Positions 423-54,266 of a stretch of DNA of 64,000 bases are shown here, piece by piece. The position numbers and the translations under genes are program-made. Origin of the DNA: a candidate division WWE3 bacterium (GTDB lineage: Bacteria; Patescibacteriota; 4484-211; GCA-002791395); contig JAAXWF010000002.1 in assembly GCA_013335095.1 (NCBI GenBank), forward strand, positions 269,566 through 333,565, written 5' to 3'. Position 1 is the stretch's first letter; the number at the start of each line of letters is the position of its first letter. A model generated the notes under the pieces. It saw only the letters and a list, made by a program, of their open reading frames with translations, had not been told where the DNA came from and made no database searches.

Positions 423-1754
423 ATGAGGATTACAGTATCCACCATGAGCCGGTCAAATGACTTTTTATTTGGAGTATCGAGTAGTTCATATCATATTGAG
501 GGCGGAAATACGGCGTCAGATTGGCATGAATTTGAAAAAAATATCTTTAAGGATCATCCAGAACATCGTAACGAAATGGGAATTGATTATTGGAATAGGT
601 GGTCACAGGACCATGATCATCTATCCGAGCTTGGTGTAGATGCATTTCGGACCTCGATTGAGTGGAGTCGTGTTCAGCCAATCTCAAGTGATTATTTTGA
701 CGAATCTGCGATTGAACAGTATTGCCAGATGCTTTCAGATCTAAAGAAACGAAATATTCGCGTCGTTCTTACTTTTGTACATTATGTCGTTCCAAAGTGG
801 TTTGCCGACATGGGCGGATTTTCCAAAAAAGAGAACTTGATTTATTTTGACCGATTTGTTGAAAGAATTCTCCGATCATGTGGTGAAAATATCGATGTGG
901 TAACCCCAGTGAATGAGATGATGGTTAATGCAGCTTTTGGATACCTCATTAAGTATTTCCCTCCGGGAGAACGAAATTTTATAAAATTTGTTCCAGTTGT
1001 CCGCAATCTTATTCGATCTCATTACATTGTTGCACAATTAATCCGAATGTATCACCCGCACATACACATCAGCACCGCTGAACAGTTTCGATTTATTAAA
1101 CCTGAACCGTCAAATCTATTCATGAAGATGATTGCCGGTATCTCAAATTATTTAGTGAATGATGTGATCTTAAAATCAATAGTGTCCAATCACTTTTTAC
1201 CACCGTTTGGATTTGGTGGAACAATCGACCGGTCTGTTAAAAAACCCGTCGATAGTATCGGAATTCAAGTATACGGAACAATTCCAATTCGATTAGGAAT
1301 GAGAGGCTGGAAACCCACGATAAAACCATCTGGATATACTTTTTGGTCGGATGCTATTTATGATGCGAAAGTTACTGCTGAAAGTCTAAAGGAAGCCGTA
1401 CTAAGAACTCAGCAAAAGTATAAAAAGCCCGTATTAATCACCGAGATTGGTATGGCGAGTGAAGATGTAACCGAACATGAACGGAAACTCCATGAATTAG
1501 TTATGGCGGTAGAATCGCTCTTAGAGCAAGGTGTAAAACTGAACGGCTTTTTGTATTTTACCCTGTTTGACTGTTTTGAATGGAATCATGGATACGACAA
1601 AAAGTTTGGTCTTATCGAAATAGATCGCGCTAATAACTTTGCCCGAAAGCCCAAACCTGCTTTTTATGCGTATAAAAATCTTATATTACGAGTAAAAAAC
1701 ATGCTGATGCCGAAAGGCAAACACCAGGTACAACCAGTCCAGTCGAAACAATAG
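423..1754 (+). CDS. Glycoside hydrolase family 1 (beta-glucosidase-like), divergent
   Basis: It carries the N-terminal GH1 signature FLFGVSSSSYHIEGG, an acid/base-like TPVNEM (the NEP motif) and a nucleophile-like LITEIGMA (the ITENG motif). Length is 443 aa. A TTGACA-like promoter lies upstream. Confidence 0.6.
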   Translation: MRITVSTMSRSNDFLFGVSSSSYHIEGGNTASDWHEFEKNIFKDHPEHRNEMGIDYWNRWSQDHDHLSELGVDAFRTSIEWSRVQPISSDYFDESAIEQYCQMLSDLKKRNIRVVLTFVHYVVPKWFADMGGFSKKENLIYFDRFVERILRSCGENIDVVTPVNEMMVNAAFGYLIKYFPPGERNFIKFVPVVRNLIRSHYIVAQLIRMYHPHIHISTAEQFRFIKPEPSNLFMKMIAGISNYLVNDVILKSIVSNHFLPPFGFGGTIDRSVKKPVDSIGIQVYGTIPIRLGMRGWKPTIKPSGYTFWSDAIYDAKVTAESLKEAVLRTQQKYKKPVLITEIGMASEDVTEHERKLHELVMAVESLLEQGVKLNGFLYFTLFDCFEWNHGYDKKFGLIEIDRANNFARKPKPAFYAYKNLILRVKNMLMPKGKHQVQPVQSKQ

Positions 1755-5438: not shown

Positions 5439-6212
5439 ATGGACGACACCACTCGGTCGGACGATCAGGGTTTTGATCGTGAAGGGTACATCGCAGAAGC
5501 TCGACAGGAGATCGAGCCTGCGATTGAAAAAATCCGCCAACTGACAATCAATTGGCAACAGTATTATCCAGGCGATGGCAACATGGTACTGATCATGGAT
5601 CGGGTACCTGGTATTGCTGAAGGATTTGGTTTGGACTTTATGAGCGCCCTTGCGATCTCGCCCATACCCCAAACCCCCGAGGAATCGGATTTCTTCACCC
5701 GCCTCGAAACGATGTTCACACCTGGGCAATATGTCCCGATCGTACTTATCCATAAAGGCAAGTACGTCGTCACATTCGTGGTACGGCCAAATCATCCAAC
5801 CGACAAGGTCGTGACGTGTGAGGGGTACAAAGTACCCGACTTCGATTGTCCGCCAGATACAGCAGAGATTGCTGATGACCTGGCGTTTATCAGGGAACAC
5901 TGGCTTGAGGTTATTAGAGCCTTGCCAGAATTTGCGGCTTCAGCTGGTGAGGGAATGATGACCCTCATCAAGTACCTGAAGACTGGTCAACGGGGCATCT
6001 ACTACACTACCACGGCAGCTGCGATGGAAGTGCTGACGACATACCCAACTGCGCGTCAGGTATTCCAAGAGCAGGTCACCCGGGTTGACCCAACTCGGTA
6101 CATCCCGCTAATGGTTGTTAGCGATATCCCCGGCGGACCGGTACTGTTCTACGGTCTCATTGTTCCCCAGGCTGGGGAAGCGCCTACAGTTGAACAAATC
6201 GACGCTGGCTAG
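5439..6212 (+). CDS. Hypothetical protein, paralog A of a triplicated GC-rich family (two repeated sub-domains)
   Basis: A 257-aa ORF with an AAAGGAG RBS. It shares YVPIVLI..FVVRP and YIPLMVV..PVLFYGL motifs with the ORFs at 6778 and 7686. It is acidic and has no TM segment or signal peptide. Confidence 0.75.
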   Translation: MDDTTRSDDQGFDREGYIAEARQEIEPAIEKIRQLTINWQQYYPGDGNMVLIMDRVPGIAEGFGLDFMSALAISPIPQTPEESDFFTRLETMFTPGQYVPIVLIHKGKYVVTFVVRPNHPTDKVVTCEGYKVPDFDCPPDTAEIADDLAFIREHWLEVIRALPEFAASAGEGMMTLIKYLKTGQRGIYYTTTAAAMEVLTTYPTARQVFQEQVTRVDPTRYIPLMVVSDIPGGPVLFYGLIVPQAGEAPTVEQIDAG

Positions 6213-6777: not shown

Positions 6778-7551
6778 ATGGACGATCAGGTATCGGATCG
6801 ACAGGAGCTAATAGCTCACACGTTGCGTTTCCTTTCCGAATCACTTACCGAGGTTGCAGCAGTAAGTCTTGCTCATATCGGACTAATCGGCTCACCCTAC
6901 CTACTTACGGTAAGTGGTCGAACCGATGGATCCACATGTCAATGTGAGATTCGGATGATAGGCGGTCGAGATCTGGCATTGTTTCAATCAGATCTCGAAG
7001 GTATTGATCTAATCCAACTATCGAAACGTCATATTCCGGGATGGTATATCCCAGTCATTGTCGAAGATGCAGGACGAGCGCTGGCCGCTGTTATAGTACG
7101 GCCGCATAACCAAGAGTTTCCGGTGGTACTAAGCAGCTCGGATAAACTCATCGACGGATACGAAGCCCCACTAGTCAGTACCACCCTCGAGGAGATGGTT
7201 ACTCCAGCAGATGAACTGTTCTTAATAACGCAGTTCGAAACGCTGGTTAGTCGATATCCGGCCTGTCTGGATCAATTCGGGTTAGGTATGTTTTGCCTCG
7301 CTCGAAGTAGTGCCACGGGGCGCACGGTGTTGGTTTTCTTCGCGCTGCAGACCATCATCGATGGATTAATCAGTGGAGGACATTACCACGCTCTAAAAGT
7401 TATCGGAACGCTCATACCCCAAACCGCTCACGGTATGTACTACCCAGTCATGGTAGTAACCGACGCACCTAACAGTCCGGTCGGTTTTGTCGGGTTAACA
7501 AAGGGCGTACAAGGAGTACAGGCAGCGCAGATCGCCTATAATTCGTTATAA
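6778..7551 (+). CDS. Hypothetical protein, paralog B of the triplicated family
   Basis: A 257-aa ORF with the same length class, two-domain layout and shared motifs: WYIPVIVED..AAVIVRP and YYPVMVVTDAPNSPVGFVGL. Confidence 0.7.
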   Translation: MDDQVSDRQELIAHTLRFLSESLTEVAAVSLAHIGLIGSPYLLTVSGRTDGSTCQCEIRMIGGRDLALFQSDLEGIDLIQLSKRHIPGWYIPVIVEDAGRALAAVIVRPHNQEFPVVLSSSDKLIDGYEAPLVSTTLEEMVTPADELFLITQFETLVSRYPACLDQFGLGMFCLARSSATGRTVLVFFALQTIIDGLISGGHYHALKVIGTLIPQTAHGMYYPVMVVTDAPNSPVGFVGLTKGVQGVQAAQIAYNSL

Positions 7552-7685: not shown

Positions 7686-8471
7686 TTGGACAGCACAACC
7701 ACGTCTAATAAGCCCTTTTCGCGGGACAGCTATCTGGCCCAGGTAGTCGAATTCATCCGCGGCAATCGGGTTTATGTGATTGACTCGAGCCTCGAATACG
7801 GCAGCATCACTTCAGTCAGGCCGCAAATCCTGATCATTATGGATGAATGCGGTGAGCTAGACCAGATCGGGCTCTACCAAACTGGTAGCATGGCCCTCGA
7901 TGGTTACGGCAAAACGCCCGAAGAAAAAGATTTCATCCGGGCGATGGCCGAGAAAACCAATCCAGGGGTGTATATCCCGATCGTGGTTTTCTTCGACCTT
8001 GAACTGGTGGCAATGCTGGTCTTCCGGCCCCTCGCGGCCGAAGATAATCAGCTTGTCGAGGTTATAGACTGGACCAATCCTCCGGTAGATGATCTATCAG
8101 CCTACCTGGCCGAAGTGGACGACGACCTAACGGTATTCCGCGATACATTTTGCGGCATTCGTCCGGTGATGGACAGATACCGAACCGGCTATGGTCCGGG
8201 GGTGTTTTCATATATGTGTGGTAGCGATGCCTCGATGCTCGCTTACCATCTAAAGGATCATCTCATCAGGATGCTCGCCCTACTGGCGGTAGAAAATCCC
8301 GAAGAGCAGGGATCAGCGATCACGAATGCGGCCAGTGATGGCACGTATGTCATCATGGTCGTCCCGATGCAGGCGCAAAGGCCGATCGTGTTTTATACGA
8401 TCAAAAGCACGCCCGAGGGTGCGGTGACGCAGCATCTGCCCATCCGGGCGATCCCGGTCATCAGCGCATAA
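7686..8471 (+). CDS. Hypothetical protein, paralog C of the triplicated family (TTG start)
   Basis: A 261-aa ORF with a TTG start and an AAAGGAG RBS. Its upstream region is paralogous to that of paralog A. Shared motifs are YIPIVVFFD..AMLVFRP and YVIMVVPMQAQRPIVFYTI. Confidence 0.7.
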   Translation: MDSTTTSNKPFSRDSYLAQVVEFIRGNRVYVIDSSLEYGSITSVRPQILIIMDECGELDQIGLYQTGSMALDGYGKTPEEKDFIRAMAEKTNPGVYIPIVVFFDLELVAMLVFRPLAAEDNQLVEVIDWTNPPVDDLSAYLAEVDDDLTVFRDTFCGIRPVMDRYRTGYGPGVFSYMCGSDASMLAYHLKDHLIRMLALLAVENPEEQGSAITNAASDGTYVIMVVPMQAQRPIVFYTIKSTPEGAVTQHLPIRAIPVISA

Positions 8472-10789: not shown

Positions 10790-12634
10790 ATGAATTTAAA
10801 TAAACCCGCGCCACCAATAGCATGGATCAGCGTAGTGTTCGCGAGTACAACGGTGGCATTGTTTTTATCTATTGCAACGCTAACCAATCCAACCCTTCCT
10901 CAATTTGGTCAAATAAATAAACCTTCACAATCTCAAGCAGCAACAACAATTACCGTTTCAGTCGATCCAAATCAGACTATTGCTCAATTTAAACCGGGCA
11001 TGCGCGGAATTGATTTCGTAAACTGGGAGCACAGCTGGGGAAGTAAGCCCTTTGTAAATGAAGTACCTGGATTAGTTCAAGCCATCAAAGAAATTAACCC
11101 AGGCTTACTTCGATATGCAGGCGGATTATGGGCAAATAGTGTGGGATTTGAACGATCAGCTCAAAAGCGCCCATATACCGAATGGACGCATAACGGCATG
11201 ACGTATTATTTTCACTACGGTACGGACGAATTAGACAGCCTTGCCAAATTTGCTAAAGCAGTAAATGCCGACACGATGATTCAAGTTAATGTATCAAACA
11301 ATGACCCTTCAATGTGGGCAGATATGGTTAAGTACACTAATAGCGAAAAAGGATACGGCTTTAAATATTGGGAGCTCGGAAATGAATTAGACTTAAACGA
11401 AGACACAAACATCTCACCAACCGTCTATGCACAAAGATTTGCCGCTTATTACAAAGCGATGATCGCAATGGATTCATCGATAAAATTACGCGGCCCAGCG
11501 GTAGCCTTTGCGATACAACAAGATGACTCAAACAGCATTATTAGCCCGAACCTTAGTAGTCTTCCTAAACTTATCAAAGATAACGGCGGACAGATGGAGG
11601 GAATGACCTGGCATTGGTATCAGGGATGTAATCTTGGTTCATACACCGATCCATTACTCTGGACATGGGATTCAACTGTTCCTGATAATTCTTGGCGTAA
11701 TGCGTATGTCCGAAAATGGTCGACACTCATGCCTTCGCGTTTGGACCGAGAAGTACTAACACCAGCCGGTGGAATGAACCAAGGTGTAACTGAATTAAAT
11801 GTCGATGCATGTAATTATGACAACCCGATGAATGGTAATCATATTGGGGCGTTGTGGTTAGCCGATGTACTCGGAAGGTTAGCAGCAAATGGTACAGATT
11901 TTGTGACTATGTATGATGCGTATGGGGTGCAAGCCTACTCACTCCTATATCCAGATGCAGGTGATTTCCCAAGTCGCATCGATGCCCGACCTACTTACTA
12001 CACGTATATCATGTACGCTCGCTATTTTGGAGACCAAATGGTTCGGACAACAACAAGTAACGAAAGTACATTATCGGTATGGGCGAGCAAAAAAACATCA
12101 GAGCCAAATAAGTTATATGTGATGGGTGTAAATCTAAGTGGAGATACCGTAACTAGTCCGATGACGTTTACCACCTCAGTGAGCAATGGGAAATCATACA
12201 CCATGAAGAGTAATAACCCAACCAATATTTCTGATGCAAGTATGACCACGGGAGCGACGACCACGATTAATGGAATCAAAATTGATGCGATGGATGTAAC
12301 CAACAGCTTGGCTAAAATTCAACCGACCTCAGTATCTGCTACAGGAACCTCAATAAGTTATTCGTTCCCGGCATATTCGGTAACTTCGCTTGTTTTTGAT
12401 ATTGGAGGGAGTTCGACCAATCCGACTCCTACACCAACAACAAATCCATCTCAAACGGCTGATATCAATCAAGATGGTGTGGTTAACGTATTTGATCTAG
12501 GAATTCTGGCAGCTCGTTATGGCATGACGATTACCGCCTCATCAACAGCACTTGATCGACGTTGTGATATGAATCAGGATAATACAATAAACGTCTTTGA
12601 TCTTGGTATTTTAGTTGGCCAATACCGTTCATAA
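10790..12634 (+). CDS. Secreted clan GH-A glycoside hydrolase with a Thr/Pro linker and a C-terminal type I dockerin
   Basis: It has an N-terminal signal-anchor. LRYAGGLWAN and YWELGNELD motifs are typical of clan A (beta/alpha)8 hydrolases (GH5/30/39/79-like). A TNPTPTPTTNP linker follows. Two dockerin calcium-binding repeats are present: DINQDGVVNVFDLGILAARYG and DMNQDNTINVFDLGILVGQY. Confidence 0.6.
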   Translation: MNLNKPAPPIAWISVVFASTTVALFLSIATLTNPTLPQFGQINKPSQSQAATTITVSVDPNQTIAQFKPGMRGIDFVNWEHSWGSKPFVNEVPGLVQAIKEINPGLLRYAGGLWANSVGFERSAQKRPYTEWTHNGMTYYFHYGTDELDSLAKFAKAVNADTMIQVNVSNNDPSMWADMVKYTNSEKGYGFKYWELGNELDLNEDTNISPTVYAQRFAAYYKAMIAMDSSIKLRGPAVAFAIQQDDSNSIISPNLSSLPKLIKDNGGQMEGMTWHWYQGCNLGSYTDPLLWTWDSTVPDNSWRNAYVRKWSTLMPSRLDREVLTPAGGMNQGVTELNVDACNYDNPMNGNHIGALWLADVLGRLAANGTDFVTMYDAYGVQAYSLLYPDAGDFPSRIDARPTYYTYIMYARYFGDQMVRTTTSNESTLSVWASKKTSEPNKLYVMGVNLSGDTVTSPMTFTTSVSNGKSYTMKSNNPTNISDASMTTGATTTINGIKIDAMDVTNSLAKIQPTSVSATGTSISYSFPAYSVTSLVFDIGGSSTNPTPTPTTNPSQTADINQDGVVNVFDLGILAARYGMTITASSTALDRRCDMNQDNTINVFDLGILVGQYRS

Positions 12635-12719: not shown

Positions 12720-13109
12720 ATGGATCAGCGCCAGAAGGTGCACGGCCCGTATCTAGGGGTCAGCATGATCGTCGTCAGCAACCAGCTGAATACAGCGGCG
12801 GTCACCAGGGTCAACTCAGATACGATTGATATCCTAGTCGCCGGAGCCACCCAGCACGTCTGGGTCGATACTTCGGGAACTGTGCTTTTTATCAATAAAG
12901 CATTCGTTCCCGAGGAACAGAGCCAGATCACGAGTACCGTGACTATTACCGACAACGCCGTCGTTACAATGGTGGCCGGGATAAACACCGGCACCATCGC
13001 CGCGAACTTCGACGGGGAGAGGATGACGGAAGCGCACATAACTGCCGCACCTCCGCCCTATACAATCACGATCCATTGCCCAGCGCATGTGATTGTGCGA
13101 TACGCATAG
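12720..13109 (+). CDS. Hypothetical protein (GC-rich)
   Basis: A 129-aa ORF with a GGAGG RBS and a dedicated consensus-like promoter. Overlapping antisense ORFs are attributed to high GC content. Confidence 0.45.
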   Translation: MDQRQKVHGPYLGVSMIVVSNQLNTAAVTRVNSDTIDILVAGATQHVWVDTSGTVLFINKAFVPEEQSQITSTVTITDNAVVTMVAGINTGTIAANFDGERMTEAHITAAPPPYTITIHCPAHVIVRYA

Positions 13110-13908: not shown

Positions 13909-15159
13909 ATGAAAAAGATTCTCATTTGGCTGATAATAATTGCAGGTTTAATTGGTGGTGGGGTTTATTACTATATGAGTAGACCCAAGCCAGTTACGAC
14001 GTATGATTTTGGAACTGTAGAGCTTGGTTCGATTGTAAAAACGGTCAGTGAATCTGGTGAAGCATTCATCAGCGATCAGTATCCGATCAACGCGACGATA
14101 ACTGGCGTTATTGATGAATTATTCATTAAAAATGGAGATAGTGTAACTGCAGGTCAGAAATTACTTACTATAAAAAGTACCGCGACTGATGATGACCGTA
14201 AAGCCGCCGAGACAACCTTACTAAGCGCTCAATCAAATCTTAATTTAGCTGAACAAAATAAATATAATTACCAAATCCAACTCGAACAGGCTAAAAAAGA
14301 TTTACGCAATGCCGAAGAGGCGATCGTTCAAATGAATAATCACCTTGGAGATAATAAAATTAACCCGGCCACAGGAAAGCAATACACTCAGTTAGAGATC
14401 GATAACATTTATGCGACTCGGGATGTAGCAAAGTTGAATAAAACAACAGCAGAACAGCGATATAAAGATGCAGATCTTTCGATTAAAGCGGCGCAAGGTT
14501 CGGTTAGCAATGCAGAAACAAACCTAAACAAACTAAAGGCGGCAACGATAAACGCTCCAGTAGGAGGACAGATATCAAACCTTACAGTCGGACGGGGTGA
14601 CTATGTTTCGGCCACCACAACCGCTATTAGCGCAGTAGGCTCGGCATCCACCCCACTTTTATACATACTTCCCAGCACCGATATTTTAATCAAAGCCCAA
14701 TACAATGAAGTAGATGCGGCCCTAATAACACCTGGTCAAAATGCAACAATCACCGTAGACGCTCTTGCCAATGAAGAGTTTGCCGGACATGTTGATCGTA
14801 TCGACACAATTGGAACAAAAACGCAAGGAGTTGTTAGCTATACAGTATATTTAAAGTTGAATGCTGAGGATAAGCGTATCCGTCCGAGTATGACTACAGT
14901 TGTAGAAATTGAGGTTGCGCGTAAAGATCAAGCGTTAACGGTGGCAACGTCTGCGGTTAGACCATATCAAAATGGTTTGGCTCTAATGCAACTGCAAGAA
15001 GATGGAACAATTACATACTTACCGATAAAAACCGGTATTACGGATGGGAGTAAAACCGAAATAATATCAGGAGTAACCCAAGGTACAAAAATTATTACAA
15101 AGGTCAACGAGCCAGAGACTAATGGAGGTGGTTTGATTGCCCGACCATCGACAAATTAA
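13909..15159 (+). CDS. Periplasmic adaptor / membrane-fusion protein (HlyD/MacA/YknX-like)
   Basis: An N-terminal TM anchor precedes a long coiled-coil segment and a beta-barrel C-terminal region. It is the first gene of an operon with the MacB-type ATPase and FtsX-type permease. Confidence 0.7.
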
Positions 15160-15853
15160 CCAGCCTTTAATCCAACTGAAGAATATCCATAAAAGTTATG
15201 ATATTGGTGAAGAAGAATTCAAAGCGTTAAAAGGCGTCGATTTAACGATTGAGAAAGGGGAGTTTGTCGCAATTATGGGACCATCCGGCAGCGGTAAATC
15301 GACCTTAATGCATATCATGGGAGCGCTAGATACGCCTTCAGAAGGAACGTACACCCTTAACGGAAAATCGATCGAGAGTCTAAAAGACGATGAATTAGCC
15401 GAGATTAGGAATAGACAAATAGGCTTTGTCTTTCAGTCGTTTAACTTATTGCCTCGGACATCTGTATATAAAAATGTCGAACGACCAATGATGTACGGTA
15501 ATATTCCGTCAAAGGAACGTCAAGAAAGAGTGATGAAAGCACTTTCATTAGTCGGACTTAATCAAAAAACACAAAATCTGTCGAACCAATTATCAGGTGG
15601 CCAAATCCAGCGAGTCGCCATTGCCCGGGCATTAGTTATGAATCCACCAATACTGCTTGCCGACGAACCGACAGGTAATTTAGATAGTAAAACATCTCAT
15701 GAAGTTATGAAATTTTTTCAGACGCTCAATAATCAAGGAAATACGATAATCGTAATAACTCATGAAGAAGACATTGCTCGCTTTACCAAACGTGTCGTAC
15801 GAATAAAAGACGGACTTATTGTCTCGGACGAAAGAATTAACCAAATATTATGA
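15137..15853 (+). CDS. ABC transporter ATP-binding protein (MacB/LolD/YknY-like)
   Basis: Walker [10 protein letters not shown], signature [15 protein letters not shown], Walker [12 protein letters not shown] and the H-loop ITHE are all present. Confidence 0.9.
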
Positions 15854-17064
15854 TCTTTATTGAAATATTTACTACCGCAATCCAGGCACTTCGCGGAAAC
15901 CTACTCCGGACATTACTAACTATGCTCGGCATTGTTATTGGTATAACATCGGTAATTCTCATTGTTTCACTGGGACAAGGAGCCACAGCGTCAATCACGA
16001 GTCAGATATCCTCTCTTGGGGTAAACCAAATCTATGTAGCACCAGGTTCACCAAATGATGATGCCTTTGAATCTACCGGAAATATGGATTCACTTTCTCT
16101 GGATGATACAAATCGATTATCTGAAGAATTAAGTGGAATTGATGCAGTATCGGCTTCAGTAAGTACTCGTTTATTAATTACAGCTAATGGTCAAAAAGTA
16201 AATGCTTCAGTTTTTGGTATCCAACCGGACTATCTTACCGTACAAACTCTGAGTATGAATCAAGGAATATTTATTGACGATAAAGACATCAATTCTCAAG
16301 GTCGTGTTGTTGTTCTGGGTCCAACGATTCGGGACAAATTATTTGGTGAAGGAGCTGATGTTGTCGGAACCCTTGTTCGTATAGATAATAAGCCGTTTCG
16401 AATTATTGGAGTCACCGAGCCTAAAGGTGGAAGCGCATTTTCAAACCCCGATGAATATGTGTATATCCCGATAACTACTGCAATGAAACAAGTTATAGGG
16501 ATAGATTATGTTCAAAGTATCGTTATCATAGCAACGGATCCGAATAACGTTGAATCAATTCAGGCAGATATAAAACAGATTTTACGAAGCGCTCACGGGA
16601 TAGCCGAAGGCCAACCGGCAGATTTCCAGATGTTTTCATCAAAGCAAGCACTTTCGACGGTTAATAATGTCACCGGCCTTCTTTCAACATTTCTGTCAGC
16701 AATAGCAGGGATATCACTTGTCGTTGGAGGGATTGGAATCATGAATATAATGCTTGTAACAGTGACCGAAAGAACCAGGGAAATAGGGTTGCTAAAGGCG
16801 ATTGGTGCTAAAAGACGTGATATTTTAACGCAATTCATTGCTGAGGCACTTGTATTAACGTTTTTAGGTGGAGTTATAGGTATTGTCTGCGGATATGGTT
16901 TGACCTTTATAGTTGCATCACTTATCAACATCCCATTAGTTATGAAGTTAAGTACAATTGGACTTGCTTTAGGGGTTGCAGCCGGAGTTGGATTACTCTT
17001 TGGTTATTATCCTGCGCAAAAAGCGGCTAAGCTAAATCCAATAGATGCACTAAGGTTTGAATAA
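15850..17064 (+). CDS. ABC transporter permease, FtsX/MacB family
   Basis: Four TM helices and a large extracytoplasmic domain fit the family. It overlaps the ATPase gene through an ATGA junction. Confidence 0.85.
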
Positions 17065-21101: not shown

Positions 21102-22304
21102 ATGCGAAAACTCTTTGTCGGAAATCGAAATTTAGCGATTATTGCACTTATCGCAATAGTGAACGCCCTCGGATACGGTATTGTAATTCCGGTTCTATAC
21201 TCTTATTCAGTTAAATTTGGACTCACTGATTTTCAAAACGGTTTACTATTCGCGCTGTTTTCACTATGCCAATTTTTATCAACACCGATAATTGGACGAT
21301 TCTCGGATAAATTAGGACGTCGCCCTCTCCTTATTGCTTCTCTAGCCGGCACAACATTGTCTTTTTTCATCATGGCATTTGCACCAAGTGCAGCATTTTT
21401 ATTTATTGCCCGTGCGTTGGATGGATTAACTGCTGGTAATATTCCAGTAGCTTCAGCGGTAATTTCGGACACAACGACCGGAGCAGACCGTGCAAAGGGC
21501 TTTGGAATTATTGGAGCTTCGTTTAGTTTAGGGATGATCTTAGGTCCAGCAATATCGGCACTCTCGGTGGGAATATCTCCAGCATTACCTTTCATTATCG
21601 CTGGGGCGATATCAGCAATTTCGGTTGTTGTAACAGTACTATATTTACCTGAGACAAATACACATTCTAAAGAGATCCAACATGCAAAGATGTTTGATTT
21701 CTCACGTTTGTTTCACGCGCTCATCGATAAAAGAATTGGTTTAGTGTTGGTTTTATCACTCCTTAATGCATTCGGTTTTGCGATGCTAATTTATGCCTAC
21801 CAGCCATATGCGACCAAAATATTAAGCTTAAATAGTCAGCAGATCGCGCTGCTATTTGTCATGTTTGGCGTCTTAGGCATGCTTTCACAACTGTTTATTC
21901 TCAGTCAAATGATAAAACGATTTGGCATCGAAAGGTCATTGTCCTTCTCTTTAATCGGAATGAGCATAACGTTTTTGGCTATCCATCTATTCCACTCACT
22001 AGCGGTATTTATTGGAGCATCTATCGTCATGGGCCTGGTTAACGTTATCCAACCATTAATTCAGACAGTGCTTGCAAGAGACACTGATCAAAACTCCCAA
22101 GGATCACTTCAGGGATTAAACGCCTCGTATATGTCGATCGGCCAAATACTCGGGCCAATTATTGGAGGGACATTAGCAACTTTCGAGATTACCTACCCAT
22201 TTTTACTTGGTAGCATCATCTTTATAATTTGTTTCTTTATCTCTATTAAGGCAGTAAAACCGCTGCAAAAAATCGAACAAGCATTTGAAACGCAAAACCC
22301 ATAG
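21102..22304 (+). CDS. MFS transporter (drug:H+ antiporter-like, 12 TM)
   Basis: Motif A GRFSDKLGRRPLL lies between TM2 and TM3. The fold shows 12 TM helices over 400 aa. Confidence 0.85.
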   Translation: MRKLFVGNRNLAIIALIAIVNALGYGIVIPVLYSYSVKFGLTDFQNGLLFALFSLCQFLSTPIIGRFSDKLGRRPLLIASLAGTTLSFFIMAFAPSAAFLFIARALDGLTAGNIPVASAVISDTTTGADRAKGFGIIGASFSLGMILGPAISALSVGISPALPFIIAGAISAISVVVTVLYLPETNTHSKEIQHAKMFDFSRLFHALIDKRIGLVLVLSLLNAFGFAMLIYAYQPYATKILSLNSQQIALLFVMFGVLGMLSQLFILSQMIKRFGIERSLSFSLIGMSITFLAIHLFHSLAVFIGASIVMGLVNVIQPLIQTVLARDTDQNSQGSLQGLNASYMSIGQILGPIIGGTLATFEITYPFLLGSIIFIICFFISIKAVKPLQKIEQAFETQNP

Positions 22305-45053: not shown

Positions 45054-45941
45054 TTAGAATGGATTACTCTTACCTGCAGGATATTGATTTGTCTCAGTTA
45101 CTTTTTCTGGATCAAAGAAAGTCGTAAGACCTTGAAGTCCTTCGATTAATCGCAGCTCATCACGACTCAGGCTGGTCGCTGGAGTATTAATAGCCCCCAA
45201 GTCTTGTGGAATATCTTGAAATGGTCCACTACCTTCAAATGAGAATGATTTATCTACCGTGTCAGGACTCCCACCTTCGGTTTGATTAAGCGTTAAACGA
45301 AAATTCATCGCAAGGATCAATGGGTTTATCTTATGAACAGTTTTTAAGAATTCAACCACTTGGCCGTAATCTCCCTGCGCGCCAAGACTGACATCAACAT
45401 AGCCTCCCGCTAAAGACTTTAATGGGTCACTCGAGTCAGCTTGTGCTTGCTGCGACTGCAGGTCATCACTTGTAGATACCACAACACCGCCCCGCTGGAG
45501 TTCTTCTTTTTGTCTTATCCCACCATATTGCACGGATTCAACCGCCATACCCGCTGAATTTAATGCCTGTTCGATACTTGCTAAAACAAGTGGGGGAGAG
45601 GACTGCGACGGTACTGCGAAATTTAAACGGACCAAGTAAGCACGTAAATCTTCAGGAACTTGAGTATTTAACACATCAATCTTTGTCATTAAGTCACTAA
45701 TTTCGGTACGACCATCCTTTAATGCGGTCATCTTTTCAGCGATATCTTCGTACCATGGTTTTATAACGAAAACTCCAAGCAGTGCTAATAAACCCATTGC
45801 AGAAAGAGGCATGATCCATGCACGAATAGCTGTACGCACTTCTAGTGCCGAAACTTTTGGTGCATTTTTATCTGCATTTTGTGCCTCACTCGCAATCAAT
45901 GGTGCGGTGGCGTTGTTTAGGTTAAATGGTTGGTCTGCCAT
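45054..45941 (-). CDS. Type IV pilus assembly protein PilO-like (long form)
   Basis: It lies downstream of pilM and pilN on the same strand. An N-terminal TM helix is followed by a coiled coil and a periplasmic domain. Assignment rests on context and topology. Confidence 0.5.
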   Translation of the reverse strand: MADQPFNLNNATAPLIASEAQNADKNAPKVSALEVRTAIRAWIMPLSAMGLLALLGVFVIKPWYEDIAEKMTALKDGRTEISDLMTKIDVLNTQVPEDLRAYLVRLNFAVPSQSSPPLVLASIEQALNSAGMAVESVQYGGIRQKEELQRGGVVVSTSDDLQSQQAQADSSDPLKSLAGGYVDVSLGAQGDYGQVVEFLKTVHKINPLILAMNFRLTLNQTEGGSPDTVDKSFSFEGSGPFQDIPQDLGAINTPATSLSRDELRLIEGLQGLTTFFDPEKVTETNQYPAGKSNPF

Positions 45942-45949
45942 ATTTGGTC

Positions 45950-46513
45950 TTAATTTACTGTTGAATCCGTCTGGGTTGGTTCCTGATAGACAAATTCCAT
46001 ACTAAATCCATATTTAAAATCTTCCTTGTCAAAATTGATTTTAGTCAACTGTACTTTTTGATACTTATCACTAGCCTCATCGACATTTTTTGCATATGTT
46101 GCAAGATCCGGCAGTGTTTCTGCTTTTCCACTTACGGTGAAATTATCTTGATTTTTAAGCTCTACAGATAAAATTTTCACCTTATCACCCGCGCGATTAC
46201 TCAAATCCTCAAGAATCTCGCCATACGGATAGTTTTTGGCAAAAATCTCGCGAATTTTATCGATCTTCAAGTGTATCGATTGCAACGTTCCTTCAACCGT
46301 CTTTTGATCACTAACCCGTGCACGTAAATCGGTAAGTTGATCATTTACATCAGAATATTGACGATTTAAATATACCCGAAAACCAAACATACCAACAATC
46401 ACGACAATGACCACGACGAGAACAGAGGTTGAAAATGACCCAACCAGCATTTGCTGTTTCTCTCGCTTCTGCTGATGTAAAACGTCCTTTGGCAGTAAAT
46501 TAATTGCAGGCAT
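45950..46513 (-). CDS. pilN: Type IV pilus assembly protein PilN
   Basis: MPAINLLPKD is the PilN N-terminal motif. A single TM helix follows. The ORF track extends it to 46567, which would overlap pilM. Confidence 0.7.
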   Translation of the reverse strand: MPAINLLPKDVLHQQKREKQQMLVGSFSTSVLVVVIVVIVGMFGFRVYLNRQYSDVNDQLTDLRARVSDQKTVEGTLQSIHLKIDKIREIFAKNYPYGEILEDLSNRAGDKVKILSVELKNQDNFTVSGKAETLPDLATYAKNVDEASDKYQKVQLTKINFDKEDFKYGFSMEFVYQEPTQTDSTVN

Positions 46514-46514
46514 A

Positions 46515-47585
46515 TTATTTCTTTTCGATAGTACGCATAGCCAATCCGGCCGCAACCGCAAATGCAACCTGATTCTCTAATTGTGATGTTTTACCCGCAT
46601 ATTGTTCTGGCACAACAACAGATTCCCATGGATTGCCGATCTGAACTTCTAAACCTAGAGTCGTAGCAAGGAAAACAACGAGTCCAGGTAACTGTGATGT
46701 ACCACCCGTTAACACAACACGCTTGACTGTATTGTTCGGATTATGGCTTTGGAAATACATAATGGCTCGTTCGACCTCGCTGATAATGACATCAAACACG
46801 GGTTTAATAACTTGCATAATTTTACCTTCAAGTTGATCTTCTAATAATCCGTAGGCTTTTTTATATTCCTCAGCTTGATTCATATCAAAGCCTAATTCCT
46901 GAGAGATAGCCCGAGCCAATGCAGTACCGCCGGTACCGATGCTTCGAGTAAATTGAATAATTCCTTGGCTTACAACAGCTAAATCAGTCGTACTGGCACC
47001 AATTGACATAAGTAGGGTAGTCGGCGCGGTTGCCTCGGCACTAGTTAACGACCGGGCGATCGCTACGATCTCGGTCTCGAATGCAACCGGAATAAGTCCA
47101 GCGTCTTTCACTATTCGCAGATATCGTTCAACTAATGAGTTTGGAGCCGCAACTAACAACACTTTAATTTTTGGTTTTTTGGGATCTTTTGATTTTAAAC
47201 TTTGTTCTAAAAGTTCTTTATCCAATACCATCCAACTCAATCGAATTTCAGAAAGAGGCATTGGTATGTATTGTTCGGCTTGCCATTCGATCGCATGAGC
47301 AAGCTCCTCTTCGCTAACCGCAGGGACTTCAATAACACGGGTAAATACTAAACTCTCGGGGAAAGCCGTCACCATTCGTTTCGATTCGATACGACTCTCT
47401 GCAACTATTTCTTTAATATTTTTGCTTAATTCGCGTTGGTCTACATCTGACTCAGAAAATATAGCCCCAGATGGGGTTGGATGATATCCAAATGTCTTTA
47501 AGTAGAATCGGCCATCTTTACGAGCTAATTCAACTACTTTTAGTGAGTTGGATCCAATGTCCAGTCCAAAAAAATCTTCTTGCAT
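46515..47585 (-). CDS. pilM: Type IV pilus assembly protein PilM (actin-like ATPase fold)
   Basis: FGLDIGSNSLKVVEL is the N-terminal actin-fold phosphate-1 motif. The length of 356 aa fits PilM. Confidence 0.85.
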   Translation of the reverse strand: MQEDFFGLDIGSNSLKVVELARKDGRFYLKTFGYHPTPSGAIFSESDVDQRELSKNIKEIVAESRIESKRMVTAFPESLVFTRVIEVPAVSEEELAHAIEWQAEQYIPMPLSEIRLSWMVLDKELLEQSLKSKDPKKPKIKVLLVAAPNSLVERYLRIVKDAGLIPVAFETEIVAIARSLTSAEATAPTTLLMSIGASTTDLAVVSQGIIQFTRSIGTGGTALARAISQELGFDMNQAEEYKKAYGLLEDQLEGKIMQVIKPVFDVIISEVERAIMYFQSHNPNNTVKRVVLTGGTSQLPGLVVFLATTLGLEVQIGNPWESVVVPEQYAGKTSQLENQVAFAVAAGLAMRTIEKK

Positions 47586-47672
47586 AGGCAGTTTAAAACC
47601 ATGAGATAAATACTGTAAACATATTTATACTTTACAGATACCTCTTTTTTAGTCTATGCTACAATAAAATCA

Positions 47673-48026
47673 ATGTCAAGAGAAGCTGGATTAACCACTA
47701 ATTATGATCGAAGTAAATTAATTATTTTAGCTGGTACTTTTGGGACAACATTAATATTACTTGGTATTTTTACCTATCTTTTCACCTCGACAAATTATCG
47801 TACAGAAACGGAGAATGAACGGAAACATGAAAATGCCACACAGACTGATCCAATTGAAGAAATTACAATAGTGCCAACTGCCGAGGTTCTCAATTTGCCG
47901 ACACCACTACCAAATCCGACACTTACTAAGGAACAACAACAAGAATTAATATCAGGCATTAAACAGCTAAATGTTCCTCCCGAGGGTTTAAAAGAGATTG
48001 AAGATTATTTCAATTCACAAAAATAA
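47673..48026 (+). CDS. Hypothetical membrane-anchored protein
   Basis: A 117-aa ORF with one TM helix and a Pro/Thr-rich segment. Confidence 0.4.
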   Translation: MSREAGLTTNYDRSKLIILAGTFGTTLILLGIFTYLFTSTNYRTETENERKHENATQTDPIEEITIVPTAEVLNLPTPLPNPTLTKEQQQELISGIKQLNVPPEGLKEIEDYFNSQK

Positions 48027-48030
48027 AAAA

Positions 48031-49983
48031 TTACGGCTTCTCTATTTCTTGCCAACTATACTTCATACCCTGATTAGTTAAATAACTCGCCAGAGTAGAG
48101 TCGAGTAAATAACCAGGCTGCCAGTTGAACAATTCAGAAGGAGTGTTCAAATTACTGTCGCCACTGCCATCGCCTAAATCACGAGGTAAGACGTATCCGC
48201 TTAAGGCTAGAACAGCACCATTCACAGTCAAAGGACGATGTGAACTTCCTGATGAATCTGATTCGAATTGATTAGTAACGATATACACCCCACCAAACTC
48301 TTCAACATTCGGTAAGACGGTCATATCACCTTCAATTAAATACACAGTATGATTTGAAATACTTACGGGTAGATCCTCCATAACCGTAACATCGCCGGTA
48401 ACAATCACAACAGCAGAAACACTGGCCCCGTCATAGCCAGTAGGAATGGTTTGACTCTTTATATCAAAATCGTCATTAACGATATAAATACCATTTGTAG
48501 TTGGAAGCTGATCTCCTGGTAAGGGTAAAGCCTGGAGCTTTATATCATCGTAGTTGGGCAAAATACTTACAATCTGAGACGAACCAGAGACGGCATGGAT
48601 ATAAGTTTCATCATACCAATCTGGATCATCAGCAAATGTGACAATATCAGTTGCACTAAAGGCTTCGGCTGGGGAATGATTTTCACCTGTGGCAGGGTAG
48701 GGGATCGAAATTTCACCATCGATGTAAATAGAACCCGTTGCCTTAATCCATGGAGAAGCGATCTCGTATACCGGACTATCACTTGAATTTCCAGCCATAT
48801 CAGCAATCCTAAATTGGACACGAAATGGACGATCAGCATTGTCACCAAAGTTCAGTTCTGGTGTTTGTAATTTGACATAGTTGGTAGCCCCATCACTGGC
48901 TGCAACTCCATTAGAGACATTCGTGATCGAAGATACAGGACTCCAATTACTCCAAAACTGATTATTATATTTTGTATAATATCGATATTCTGCCGTTGAA
49001 ACATCTGCGCCACTAGACTGATCAACTACATCGGCCGAAGTTGTAAAACATACAGCACATCCACCATTTATGCTGGCAAATGTTTGCCAGGGATTGGGAA
49101 TCACTGTATCTTTCTTCAACGAGGTTGTTTTCTCGGCTTCAGTATTATTATCGTTATCCCGGCTATAGTAGTGAAGAGTATGGTTGCCTTCAGTACTTTG
49201 AGTGAAGTTAACTTGAGCGTTTGTGTTCACACCAGATGTTTGGATATTATCCCAATACACAATGGCTGCAGGAGTACCAATAGCTCCAACCTTTAAATAA
49301 ATATAATTCGTATCAGATGGAACCGTAAACTGAGCAGTGGCATTGCGCCATCCCCAAATAAATCCTTCAAGATGCTCGGATGACGCAAGTAATTGATCAT
49401 TAGTACCGTTTTGACGTTGTCCCCATACTTCAAAATATGCATAATCACCAGGAAACATGACGGTACGCGCCCAGGCACTTATTTGGACAACTTGGCCTGG
49501 TGTAAATGCCACCGCTTTAGATTCGTTACTCCAGTAATAAAATGTAGAACTAAGCCCGACGAATGCAATTGCAGCGGTCTTATTGCCGTCATAAGGACTC
49601 ACATTACTCTGATAGTACAGAACGAGTCCACCTGGTCCCTGATTCCAGTTGCTAATATTTAGAAAGGATCCTTGTTCATACGATGGATTTAGAAATGTCG
49701 GAGCCGAGCTGGTAGGAAAATTCACAGTAGTAGGTGCGGCTGAATCAATCCAATACGTAGTAGACATGGGACCACTTCCACTGTCCGTCACATCCAGTGT
49801 GACATCAATATTACTTCGATACCATCCTGATTGTCCTGCAGTACCACTTAGTGATGATGAAGTTACTGGTGGTGTAGTTTCGGCTTTAATTTCGCTTACA
49901 CAAAAACATAAAAACAGCAGTAATACGGTATTTAAAATTAATAATGATCTACGTGTTAAAAGGCAGTATTTTTGATGATACAT
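48031..49983 (-). CDS. Large secreted hypothetical protein at the distal end of the minor-pilin operon (candidate pilus-associated adhesin)
   Basis: A 650-aa ORF with a signal peptide MYHQKYCLLTRRSLLILNTVLLLFLCFCVSEIKA. It is rich in Ser, Thr, Asn and Gly and predicted to be mostly beta. It is co-oriented with the prepilin genes. Confidence 0.55.
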   Translation of the reverse strand: MYHQKYCLLTRRSLLILNTVLLLFLCFCVSEIKAETTPPVTSSSLSGTAGQSGWYRSNIDVTLDVTDSGSGPMSTTYWIDSAAPTTVNFPTSSAPTFLNPSYEQGSFLNISNWNQGPGGLVLYYQSNVSPYDGNKTAAIAFVGLSSTFYYWSNESKAVAFTPGQVVQISAWARTVMFPGDYAYFEVWGQRQNGTNDQLLASSEHLEGFIWGWRNATAQFTVPSDTNYIYLKVGAIGTPAAIVYWDNIQTSGVNTNAQVNFTQSTEGNHTLHYYSRDNDNNTEAEKTTSLKKDTVIPNPWQTFASINGGCAVCFTTSADVVDQSSGADVSTAEYRYYTKYNNQFWSNWSPVSSITNVSNGVAASDGATNYVKLQTPELNFGDNADRPFRVQFRIADMAGNSSDSPVYEIASPWIKATGSIYIDGEISIPYPATGENHSPAEAFSATDIVTFADDPDWYDETYIHAVSGSSQIVSILPNYDDIKLQALPLPGDQLPTTNGIYIVNDDFDIKSQTIPTGYDGASVSAVVIVTGDVTVMEDLPVSISNHTVYLIEGDMTVLPNVEEFGGVYIVTNQFESDSSGSSHRPLTVNGAVLALSGYVLPRDLGDGSGDSNLNTPSELFNWQPGYLLDSTLASYLTNQGMKYSWQEIEKP

Positions 49984-49997
49984 TAAATTTCATTACG

Positions 49998-50807
49998 TTA
50001 CTTTGAGAGTGATCCTGATGCCGAAAATAATACATAATCAAGAATAGCTGGTGGAACAGGAGCACTACGTTGTAATTGAACTGTACGCTCTGTCTCTCCA
50101 GACTGACCAGTCGCTTTAACAATAGTACTCTGAGTTGGTATTGTAGTACCGGCAAGAGGAGTAACGGAGAGATCTGAATCTCCATACATCACCCGGAAGC
50201 GCAAGATTTTGTCCGTAGCACCATTTACATTAAATTGTTGCTGACAAACGCCACTTGCTGCAGAGCTTTGAGTAAAACCATTTCCGGGATTAAATCCACA
50301 GTTGTATGCCCAACGCTCAACATTATAATTGGGACTGGTACCACTAATCTTAGTAACAACGATAGCGGTGTTAGCATCCCACTGAACGCGAACCTGTCCA
50401 GTACCGCAGCTGGCACAATCTAAATTAAGTTGGGCAACATCATCTTTTTTCAAATTATTAACTTGAAGCGTTGTATCGGGCTGAACAGTAACTTGTTTAA
50501 TAGTTGATCCACTGTCTAAATTTTTAGGATTAATTGTTGGAACAGGAGTACCTTGTTCAATTTTAAGAATAGCTTCTTCAACACCGGCTTCGGCAGCAGA
50601 GAAGGCTCGATTCGTTTCTTCGGTAGTTGCTGTTGATTCAAGATTTCTGAATGTAGTACCGGCAATAGATAACGCAATGGTTAACCCGACAATAACGATT
50701 AATAGTATAACCACTAATATTTGTCCTTGTTTAGCCGAACGGTCGGTAAAGATAAGATTCATGTATACTTCAACTTTAGTAATTTCTCGAATAAATGTCA
50801 AACACAT
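49998..50807 (-). CDS. Minor pilin-like protein (PilX-like), hydrophobic N-terminal helix
   Basis: The likely start is the ATG at 50762 (MNLIFTDRSAKQGQILVVILLIVIVGL). It follows three prepilin genes on the same strand. Confidence 0.5.
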   Translation of the reverse strand: MCLTFIREITKVEVYMNLIFTDRSAKQGQILVVILLIVIVGLTIALSIAGTTFRNLESTATTEETNRAFSAAEAGVEEAILKIEQGTPVPTINPKNLDSGSTIKQVTVQPDTTLQVNNLKKDDVAQLNLDCASCGTGQVRVQWDANTAIVVTKISGTSPNYNVERWAYNCGFNPGNGFTQSSAASGVCQQQFNVNGATDKILRFRVMYGDSDLSVTPLAGTTIPTQSTIVKATGQSGETERTVQLQRSAPVPPAILDYVLFSASGSLSK

Positions 50808-50828
50808 CTATTCAAACAATTACATTAC

Positions 50829-51434
50829 TTAATATCCGCGAGTTAACACACTTCTTTCAAATTGTTGTGATGCTTGCTGTTCCGGATCCGAAAGAGATGG
50901 TTCCTGCCTTAACACAAGAGAAATCCGGACCTGGTCGGGTGAATCGTCATTTTCAGTTACATCATATGACGCTGAAGAAACTTCAACAGTTGTGCTTGTC
51001 AGTACACAAGGATTACCGGAAGGGCACAGTGATGTACCGTCGCAAGAAGAAGTTGTTTTCCGAATAGAATTACTTGGATCATCATAATACAGCTCAACTT
51101 GAGTGCATCCACCATTACTTGAATACTCTAAGTTCCCCGCCTGACGGGGAATCGTTAAACGAACACCCGACGGGCTGGCTATTTCAACCGCATTACTCGC
51201 ATTACGAATAGTTCTAACCATTTGCTCCATGACACGAGAACCTTCTTGATTAACGGTACTAACAACATTTGCTTTGTCATAGGCTGAGCTTAGGGATAAA
51301 AAGATAGATATTGATATACCTGCAATAATCGACATGACCCCAATCGAAACCAGAATCTCAATTAAGGTAAAACCTTCAACTTTTTTATTAAAAAAATCAC
51401 CCGGTGTAATCATAGCAGTAGCTCCATCAAACAC
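50829..51434 (-). CDS. Type IV prepilin-like protein (minor pilin)
   Basis: The class III signal is KKVEG|FTLIEILVSIGVMSIIAG, with Glu at +5. Confidence 0.75.
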   Translation of the reverse strand: MFDGATAMITPGDFFNKKVEGFTLIEILVSIGVMSIIAGISISIFLSLSSAYDKANVVSTVNQEGSRVMEQMVRTIRNASNAVEIASPSGVRLTIPRQAGNLEYSSNGGCTQVELYYDDPSNSIRKTTSSCDGTSLCPSGNPCVLTSTTVEVSSASYDVTENDDSPDQVRISLVLRQEPSLSDPEQQASQQFERSVLTRGY

Positions 51435-52377: not shown

Positions 52378-52408
52378 AATTTTTATTGATACCTACAATT
52401 TGAGAGTA

Positions 52409-53230: not shown

Positions 53231-53324
53231 TTAATATGTATACTTTATTAATAATAGATTATTCAACCAAATACGAACATATCATATATTATTATGATTG
53301 ACGCGTTAAAACCAGCAAGGTAGC

Positions 53325-53873: not shown

Positions 53874-53875
53874 AT

Positions 53876-54121: not shown

Positions 54122-54195
54122 AACATTTCTATATTAGTTCACTACCCATTGCATGAAATTAAATAATTAAAATGGTTCTTTAGTATTTAATGCTT

Positions 54196-54230
54196 GTATA
54201 TAAAACAAAGAGCCGTTAATACGGCTCTTT
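54196..54230 (-). terminator. Rho-independent terminator of the pilin gene
   Basis: On the minus strand, a 9-bp stem AAAGAGCCG / CGGCTCTTT with loop ttaata is followed by GTTTTATATA. Confidence 0.7.
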
Positions 54231-54266
54231 GAGTAAACATTGGTAATTACCAATAACGTTAAATCA

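Follow-up and report, generated by a model that had tools for sequence, protein, structure and literature searches.

What does a dockerin do at the C-terminus of a glycoside hydrolase in an ultra-small bacterium, and does the genome hold anything for it to dock to? The question is raised by HGA91_04100, a gene from a candidate division WWE3 bacterium. It lies in a 64,000-nucleotide stretch (hereafter the window) of a contig of 358,632 bp. By itself, HGA91_04100 is an ordinary modular carbohydrate-active enzyme with a dockerin, a known type of protein. We propose, with moderate confidence, that it is a membrane-tethered dockerin enzyme and the cargo of a divergent, unannotated cohesin-dockerin surface display system, the candidate cohesins of which lie outside the window, on the same contig and on a second contig of the same metagenome-assembled genome (MAG). 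The gene and its predicted parts, several of them delimited on an AlphaFold2 (AF2) model with its predicted local distance difference test (pLDDT) scores, are as follows.

10790..12634, plus strand: complete open reading frame (ORF) with an ATG start, 614 aa (NTV31127.1 / HGA91_04100, annotated 'hypothetical protein')
10817..10885, plus strand: predicted N-terminal transmembrane helix, aa 10-32, IAWISVVFASTTVALFLSIATLT (AF2 helix and hydropathy)
10955..11989, plus strand: catalytic (beta/alpha)8 domain of clan GH-A, aa 56-400 (AF2 pLDDT >90, Foldseek and PDB profile search)
11384..11386, plus strand: E199, predicted general acid/base, in WELGNE (N198-E199); conserved and aligned to the GNE of 5bwi
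11792..11794, plus strand: E335, predicted catalytic nucleophile, in GVTELN; conserved and aligned to CelM2
11990..12403, plus strand: C-terminal beta-sandwich of the kind known from GH51, GH79 and GH44, aa 401-538 (sub-threshold Alpha-L-AF_C match, AF2 strands with pLDDT >90)
12404..12457, plus strand: Thr/Pro-rich flexible linker, aa 539-556, GGSSTNPTPTPTTNPSQT (disordered in AF2, pLDDT <50)
12458..12631, plus strand: type-I dockerin, aa 557-614 (Pfam PF00404), with Ca loops at 12461-12496 and 12566-12601

An earlier note, made from the letters of the window, had described a 614-aa reading frame with a signal anchor, a clan GH-A glycoside hydrolase (GH) barrel, a Thr/Pro linker and a two-repeat type I dockerin; the reading frame is exact, the helix at aa 10-32 is modeled as such, and the linker is modeled as disordered. 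The AF2 model was built from a 65-sequence alignment and has a mean pLDDT of 90.7 and a predicted template modeling score (pTM) of 0.81. The N-terminal hydrophobic stretch is 23 residues long (19-mer hydropathy 2.11) and forms a single helix in this model. Since the residues behind the helix, TNPTLPQFGQ, contain no small-x-small (AxA-type) cleavage motif, it is probably an uncleaved signal anchor. As in GH79 and GH30, the first strand of the barrel region (aa 56-66) is probably part of the beta-sandwich. Scans for promoters and terminators near the gene gave nothing above chance.

The dockerin scores 31 bits against Pfam PF00404 (gathering cut-off 22.9, E 3e-7, aa 557-608), which sets aside the alternative that the C-terminal repeats are generic EF-hands, and its top match among PDB sequences is the dockerin of a cellulosomal GH48 enzyme (2y3n_B, E 2.4e-4). 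It consists of two tandem repeats of ~22 residues, the 12-residue Ca loops of which, DINQDGVVNVFD and DMNQDNTINVFD, each carry the pattern D1/N3/D5/N9/D12, and it is modeled as three helices (aa 567-575, 587-592 and 602-610; pLDDT 92-96). The helix start behind both loops is identical, FDLGIL; because the repeats are near-identical, a dual binding mode is suggested. Across all six frames of the window, these are the sole two such Ca loops.

What, then, could this dockerin bind? Pfam scans of the 54 further window ORFs of at least 120 aa found no cohesin, SLH domain or second dockerin, and the hidden Markov model (HMM) of the cohesin-like modules described below has no match in the six-frame translation of the window. 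The earlier claim that the enzyme lacks a cohesin partner in the window is thus correct, and the absence is one of the window only, for cohesin-like modules are encoded elsewhere on the same contig and on a second contig. The nearer candidate, HGA91_03920 (P0241, 664 aa), is encoded upstream of the window, at a distance of 36 locus tags (34 protein accessions) from HGA91_04100. It lies three locus tags from HGA91_03905 (P0004), a paralogue of HGA91_04100 that is 45% identical to it and has the architecture GH-dockerin-SGNH esterase.

Neighborhood L082, 5756-13117, same WWE3 contig, outside the window: a Pel9A-like beta-helix protein adjoining HGA91_03920, HGA91_03920 itself, a 191-aa PsbP_2-like protein, and HGA91_03905

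From its N-terminus, HGA91_03920 comprises a transmembrane (TM) segment, two beta-rich modules of ~120 aa, a Thr/Pro linker, an immunoglobulin (Ig)-like module, a dockerin, and a module related to carbohydrate-binding module (CBM) families CBM8 and CBM11. Its dockerin matches that of HGA91_04100 with an E-value of 5.7e-14, and no ORF of the window resembles its beta modules. A profile made of six modules, those of HGA91_03920 and of its two closest homologues, was run with HMMER exhaustively against 1.84 billion representative proteins and found 36, so the family is rare. Of the 35 module proteins that were checked, ten begin with a signal peptide, which is followed by one module, a Thr/Pro linker and the parts of a sortase signal: an LPx[ST]G-like motif, a TM helix and a basic tail. 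About 12 terminate in a TM anchor without such a signal, and 10 carry a dockerin of the ..FDLGI.. type. Two of the 36 come from the same MAG as our enzyme, on a 260,013-bp contig: HGA91_04670 (module-dockerin) and HGA91_04695 (module-LPSSG). They belong to a six-gene cluster (L083) with the following gene types.

Module-dockerin, 199 aa
Module-TM, 185 aa
Module-LPVTG, 226 aa
TM-module-module-Ig-dockerin, 472 aa
TM-Ig-dockerin, 212 aa, which passes Pfam Dockerin_1
Module-LPSSG, 194 aa

This genome accordingly holds eight cohesin-like modules, two on HGA91_03920 and six in the cluster. A second sample contains this cluster too, flanked likewise by IF-2, YceG and a PAS protein, and a variant in a third sample stands beside dockerin-bearing proteins that include a phytase/metallophosphatase. 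In a related locus from another sample, same-subtype dockerins are found on a 797-aa Phytase+Metallophos protein and on two small proteins (L084, 36-3960 and 12132-12896); the same contig carries a heliorhodopsin gene. In P0242, the modules themselves are combined with Metallophos. Phosphoesterases are thus among the proteins with dockerins of the same type, and therefore the cargo is not limited to carbohydrate-active enzymes. The module HMM matches only the module loci described here, and none of the 80 loci around homologues of the GH.

Six dockerins of this genome have the ..FDLGI.. core or variants of it. They fall into two groups, the enzyme-borne dockerins of HGA91_04100 and HGA91_03905, with FDLGIL, and the scaffold-borne dockerins that stand behind an Ig-like module. 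The two groups recall the division of classical cellulosomes between type I dockerins and X-module/type II dockerins. By domain architecture, then, the genome encodes dockerin enzymes, two-module proteins and sortase-signal proteins, a cellulosome-like set if the modules are cohesins.

Are the modules cohesins? The Pfam family that the largest number of them match is Cohesin (PF00963; 9 of 41 modules, best E 3.3e-7). Module 1 of HGA91_03920 is modeled with nine strands (pLDDT 73-87), and Foldseek aligns it with the Archaeoglobus fulgidus cohesin 2xdh (target-normalized template modeling score (TMt) 0.63, root-mean-square deviation (rmsd) 3.9 A over 124 columns, 20% identity) and with the Ruminococcus flavefaciens type III cohesin 5n5p (TMt 0.64); the Clostridium perfringens cohesin-FN3 construct 2w1n is also matched by HGA91_03920. 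Apart from CBM8 and CBM11 for the C-terminal module, cohesins are the only domain-sized, low-rmsd matches of this protein. Each module has two invariant cysteines. Moreover, modules and dockerins co-occur within genes and within loci, and the grammar of sortase-anchored proteins, adaptors and two-module Ig-dockerin proteins is, by analogy, that of scaffoldins. We lean slightly toward the view that the modules function as cohesins that bind these dockerins.

A number of observations weigh against this view or against the display system built upon it. The modules of this genome have no precomputed Pfam match; when those of HGA91_03920 and its two closest homologues, six in all, are compared with Cohesin, a single one reaches it, at E 0.087. 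Alignment of the module profiles with the Clostridium thermocellum CipA cohesins by hhalign, using cohesin sequences verified against the PDB, gave probabilities of 0.5% and 9%, and PDB searches with the modules, by profile and by single sequence, yielded no cohesin. Seven modules have weak matches to GspH (best E 0.0065). The AF2 model of HGA91_03920, which rested on only two homologues spanning most of its length, is poor (mean pLDDT 52) and usable for module 1 and the Ig module only. That the second contig comes from the same organism is a matter of MAG binning. As for the enzyme, its own membrane anchor makes the dockerin unneeded for keeping it on the cell, and its nearest structures are a mixture of exo-beta-glucuronidases, heparanases, arabinofuranosidases and endoglucanases, all at 14-18% identity. 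Finally, the system may not be dedicated to polysaccharides, since the cargo with same-type dockerins includes phosphoesterases.

Taking both sides together, we see an even chance that a lineage of WWE3 bacteria, with genomes of ~0.6 Mb, holds a complete, previously unannotated cohesin-dockerin display system based on a rare, divergent cohesin family, which would be a general nutrient-scavenging or host-contact nanomachine and not a strict cellulosome. The parts of such a system, in an equally balanced judgment, would be single cohesins anchored by sortase or by TM helices, cohesin-dockerin adaptors, and two-cohesin scaffoldins with Ig-dockerin and CBM. Its cargo, a call that could go either way, would comprise an unclassified clan GH-A hydrolase family, an esterase and phosphoesterases.

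What kind of enzyme would be displayed? The model of HGA91_04100 shows a (beta/alpha)8 barrel packed on a beta-sandwich, and its top Foldseek matches in the PDB are all clan GH-A enzymes, at 14-18% identity. Family GH79 comes first (E 5e-27 for the Acidobacterium capsulatum beta-glucuronidase, followed by heparanases of bacterial and human origin and a leech hyaluronidase), GH51 arabinofuranosidases second (~1e-23), and GH44 endoglucanases and xyloglucanases third (1e-23 to 1e-20). A profile of the family run against PDB sequences finds the three roughly equal, with GH44 at 1.5e-13, GH79 at 8e-13 and GH51 at 3e-12, the match to GH44 structures being confined to profile positions 261-486. The LR(Y)xGG and WELGNE motifs reported earlier are found in LLRYAGGLW at aa 105-113 (R108) and YWELGNE at aa 193-199 (E195, N198 and E199). 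R108 and the WELGNE residues, together with H275, Y277 and E335, are invariant in an alignment of the query with 64 homologues. In the Burkholderia GH79 structure 5bwi, the counterpart of E199 by alignment is the GNE glutamate, and the 'GitElN' of the family profile aligns with the 'aitEyN' of the GH44 enzyme CelM2. With this fold and both catalytic Glu residues, the protein is placed within the glycoside hydrolases and, as had been suggested, in clan GH-A.

The choice of family is another matter. GH5, GH30, GH39 and GH79 had been named as candidates, and of these GH79 survives as a near neighbor that stays below threshold (Pfam Glyco_hydro_79n 16 bits against a cut-off of 23.1, over 49 residues); some far relatives lie narrowly above that cut-off. 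GH5, GH30 and GH39 have no match to the HGA91_04100 product at E up to 1 in Pfam and NCBIfam, matches to GH39 being confined to very distant relatives. GH51 and GH44 are equally near: the GH51 models score below threshold (NCBIfam ArfA 15.9 bits against 625; Pfam Alpha-L-AF_C 19.7 against 27, E 1e-3), and Pfam GH44 does not match the product. We conclude that HGA91_04100 encodes a retaining enzyme of clan GH-A and that its family differs from all those represented by a solved structure or a Pfam model.

This family is large. A homologue search with HGA91_04100 returned 148 matches, the best 57% identical, and a pattern scan over one genome per species returned 489 relatives, with a best identity of 48% in GTDB genomes. 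In a protein collection clustered at 90% identity, the 614-aa product sits under a 51-aa fragment representative, P0284, and this is probably why an identical match is missing from the homologue search; such clustering can hide exact matches. Named members in the candidate phyla radiation (CPR) come from WWE3, Roizmanbacteria, Dojkabacteria, Saccharibacteria, Wildermuthbacteria and Levyibacteriota, and outside it from Chloroflexota, Planctomycetota and one Woesearchaeota archaeon. The last (Candidatus Woesearchaeota archaeon, L016, 9134-13339) has a 35%-identical GH homologue fused to CBM30 and Big_5, a DPANN case that makes the family common to ultra-small bacteria and archaea of groundwater. 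Every homologue has a signal peptide or an N-terminal anchor, and many of the signal peptides are canonical, ending in AQ or AQT. About 40 of 120 homologues have a C-terminal dockerin, other CPR lineages are among the named family members, and dockerin or cohesin genes have already been noted in Patescibacteria (PMC10633639, PMC9123182); the enzyme, which the earlier note called unexpected for a small streamlined genome, is thus not peculiar to a single such genome. Further modules on homologues are CBM60, CBM6/35, PA14, CHRD, CARDB, an SGNH esterase and a second GH5 domain, and more distant relatives have the architectures GH-Fn3-CBM2 in actinomycetes and CBM30-CBM11-GH in Fibrobacter. When 20 unannotated ORFs of the window were compared by tblastn with the 80 homologue loci, no conserved neighbor of the GH emerged.

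We propose the following mechanism. The Sec system would export HGA91_04100, and the uncleaved N-terminal helix would keep the protein in the membrane. The catalytic domain would then cleave a beta-linked glycan of the cell-wall type by double displacement. Our best guesses for the substrate are beta-glucan, xyloglucan or xylan, because CBM2, CBM6/35, CBM11, CBM30, CBM60 and an SGNH esterase are fused to relatives, and it is from these appended modules that a beta-glucan or xylan-type cell-wall substrate is inferred; further hints of the substrate are PA14 in close homologues and, near the paralogue, the CBM8/11-like module of HGA91_03920 and the Pel9A-like beta-helix neighbor. The Ca-bound dockerin would plug into a divergent cohesin-like module, either on HGA91_03920 or on a product of the six-gene cluster (HGA91_04670, HGA91_04695). 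Because HGA91_04100 has its own anchor, docking would organize the surface rather than merely retain the enzyme, and the outcome would be a small cell-surface assembly in which the enzyme has a carbohydrate-binding module and further docked enzymes as neighbors. The oligosaccharides set free could be imported and then split by the cytoplasmic GH1 that the window encodes.

Whose glycans would be cleaved? The enzyme could instead be an epibiont's weapon or feeding tool, directed at glycans in the envelope of a bacterial or archaeal host and not at plant or algal polysaccharide of the environment, a possibility that we take seriously while judging it unlikely. The organism belongs to the CPR and has a genome of ~0.62 Mb, a type IV pilus cluster lies in the window, and for Saccharibacteria it has been proposed that such proteins act on host glycans (PMC10633639). 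The closest folds likewise include GH79 enzymes of the heparanase and hyaluronidase type, which cut uronic-acid-containing glycans, and the SGNH esterase of the paralogue could strip O-acetyl groups from cell-wall glycans; the CBMs of the relatives, however, are of plant-cell-wall types (CBM2, CBM11, CBM30, CBM60 and CBM6/35), and the family is also found in free-living Chloroflexota, Planctomycetota and actinomycetes.

Might the dockerin bind no cohesin at all, the modules being unrelated Ig-like or pilin-like surface domains? We consider this improbable. It would be surprising, if the modules were unrelated to the dockerins, that they occur almost only alongside sortase signals, TM anchors or dockerins of the enzyme subtype, that one module protein adjoins the paralogous GH-dockerin gene, and that Cohesin is both their best Pfam family (E 3.3e-7) and their best domain-sized structural match. 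Non-cellulosomal dockerins without recognized cohesins are reportedly widespread, according to Peer et al. in 2009, and an orphan would fit a window without a cohesin, module sequences whose links to solved cohesins are not significant, and the weak GspH matches of some modules. For dockerin surface proteins of ultra-small bacteria, moreover, attachment to host or prey has been proposed (PMC10633639; bioRxiv 10.1101/2023.11.21.568195).

Of similarly low probability is a classical secreted cellulosomal enzyme, the signal peptide of which is cleaved so that the protein is held solely by its dockerin on a sortase-anchored cohesin. Many homologues have the canonical signal peptides that this arrangement calls for, with AQ or AQT ends, and the cohesin-like proteins of this genome that carry sortase signals could be the anchors; in HGA91_04100, however, the 23-residue hydrophobic stretch is modeled as one long helix, and the TNPTLPQFGQ behind it is without a small-x-small motif. 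That the enzyme is simply an alpha-L-arabinofuranosidase of family GH51, as JGI labels several homologues, is very doubtful, since the weak Alpha-L-AF_C and ArfA matches fall far under their cut-offs, and GH79 and GH44 match as well as or better than the GH51 structures that Foldseek finds at E 1e-23. We therefore retain the membrane-tethered enzyme as cargo of a display system as the preferred account of HGA91_04100.

The remainder of the window offers a few further features that could bear on this account, and others that we record for completeness.

423..1754, plus strand: GH1 beta-glycosidase-like protein (Pfam E 3.9e-58; motifs NEM and ITEIG), without a signal peptide
5439-6212, 6778-7551 and 7686-8471, plus strand: three tandem paralogous ORFs of 257-261 aa, mutual identity 20-25%, blastp E 1e-11 to 1e-12
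12720-13109, plus strand: beta-rich ORF of 129 aa, 86 bp downstream of the GH gene, without a Pfam match or signal peptide
13909-17064, plus strand: MacAB-like tripartite efflux set (periplasmic adaptor, ABC ATPase and FtsX/MacB permease), downstream of the GH
21102..22304, plus strand: MFS transporter with weak Sugar_tr and MFS_2 matches
45054-59422, minus strand: type IV pilus cluster with PilM, a PilN-like protein, a prepilin peptidase, several N-methyl pilins, PilC and two T2SSE-family ATPases (351 and 568 aa)

The GH1, which had already been pointed out in the window, is a possible cytoplasmic partner for imported oligosaccharides, and the MFS transporter may likewise be linked in function to the GH. 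No link is seen between the MacAB-like set and the dockerin enzyme. The beta-rich ORF at 12720-13109 was considered as a hidden cohesin and rejected, as it matches neither the HGA91_03920 modules nor the cohesin-like HMM; it is overlapped by two antisense ORFs and is called as a gene on a Logan contig. None of the three tandem paralogues has a Pfam match or a signal peptide; by blastp, aa 144-230 of the first resemble aa 17-105 of the third (E 0.009), which may reflect an internal duplication. Within the pilus cluster, 48031-49983 encodes a 650-aa secreted protein without a Pfam match that may be a pilus-tip or adhesin component. Housekeeping genes of the window are those for threonyl- and phenylalanyl-tRNA synthetases (ThrRS, PheRS), IF3, NusB, RNase III, PBP1 and GyrB (100% identical to NTV31180.1), and, besides the pilus, GH1, MacAB-like and MFS genes, Pfam identifies GT2 and GtrA.

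What would such a system mean? It is from cellulolytic Firmicutes with large genomes that cohesin-dockerin assemblies are mainly known, whereas the WWE3 organism, at ~0.6 Mb, appears to spend at least nine genes on one. If this is true, modular hydrolase display would be central to the sugar supply, and perhaps the phosphate supply, of ultra-small bacteria with little biosynthesis of their own. It would also mean that the cohesins of such systems escape standard domain annotation, and therefore that many "orphan" dockerins of candidate phyla may have undetected partners. For protein engineering, the WWE3 proteins would offer a compact, orthogonal set of cohesin-dockerin pairs. To these would be added an uncharacterized clan GH-A family that is widespread in CPR, Chloroflexota and Planctomycetota.

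How does the proposed system compare with those already known? In the CPR, the dockerin-domain surface protein SEML1_0315 of Southlakia is essential in culture (PMC10633639), and the cohesin and dockerin genes of Ca. Shapirobacterales BG1-G2 are expressed in groundwater (PMC9123182). Both reports relied on standard domain annotation without describing how a system is built, whereas the WWE3 partner modules emerged from a profile search and fold comparison. The literature that we searched, with partial coverage, describes no cohesin-dockerin system in WWE3. Three elements are apparently new: a divergent family of unannotated cohesin-like modules, the unclassified clan GH-A family, and, in a genome of ~0.62 Mb, a complete set of scaffoldin-like genes.

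In comparison to the dockerins of C. thermocellum Cel48S and Xyn10B (2y3n, 1ohz and 2ccl), the dockerin of HGA91_04100 is likewise C-terminal and stands behind a Thr/Pro linker. It shares with cellulosomal type-I dockerins the two 22-residue repeats, the 12-residue Ca loops, the three-helix fold and a PF00404 score above cut-off. It differs in its host, a CPR bacterium with a ~0.6 Mb genome and not a cellulolytic Firmicute, and in the putative recognition positions 10-11, which are V-F in WWE3 and not S-T. Unlike cellulosomal enzymes, HGA91_04100 has its own N-terminal membrane anchor, and, unlike the cohesins of cellulosomes, the WWE3 candidates are too divergent for routine annotation.

Similarly, the catalytic domain resembles GH79 without passing the threshold of that family. 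The GH79 structures 3vny, 5bwi and 5la4 are the best structural matches (E 5e-27, TMt ~0.8) and have the same barrel and beta-sandwich; WELGNE resembles the FEIGNE of 5bwi, and, as in GH79, a WHxY follows strand 6 and the Glu nucleophile follows strand 7. In human heparanase the WELGNE motif is identical, and WHxY and a Glu nucleophile are present as well. Heparanase holds the uronate carboxylate of its substrate by Gly-Gly backbone amides, and the HGA91_04100 sequence appears to have no obvious Gly-Gly counterpart behind E335. Identity to GH79 is only 14-18%, and the short Glyco_hydro_79n match falls under its cut-off as described above. With GH44 (CelM2 3ii1, Cel44A 2e0p) and GH51 (3s2c, 1pz3), the domain shares the clan, the beta-sandwich and comparable profile E-values; the matches, however, span parts of the domain only, and no Pfam or NCBIfam threshold is passed.

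Finally, a close parallel in overall design is the cellulosome of R. flavefaciens, which combines a sortase-anchored ScaE cohesin, cohesin-dockerin adaptor scaffoldins and an X-module plus dockerin. The WWE3 set differs in that most of its modules are unrecognizable as cohesins by sequence and have two invariant cysteines each, that some of its anchors are plain TM helices, and that its cargo includes phosphoesterases. Yet one of the structural matches of the WWE3 modules is the type III cohesin of R. flavefaciens itself, 5n5p, and the two inventories, that of WWE3 being known here from its genes, can be read side by side: single-module proteins with LPxSG/LPxTG, TM helix and basic tail, module-dockerin adaptors, and two-module proteins in which an Ig-like module is followed by a dockerin.

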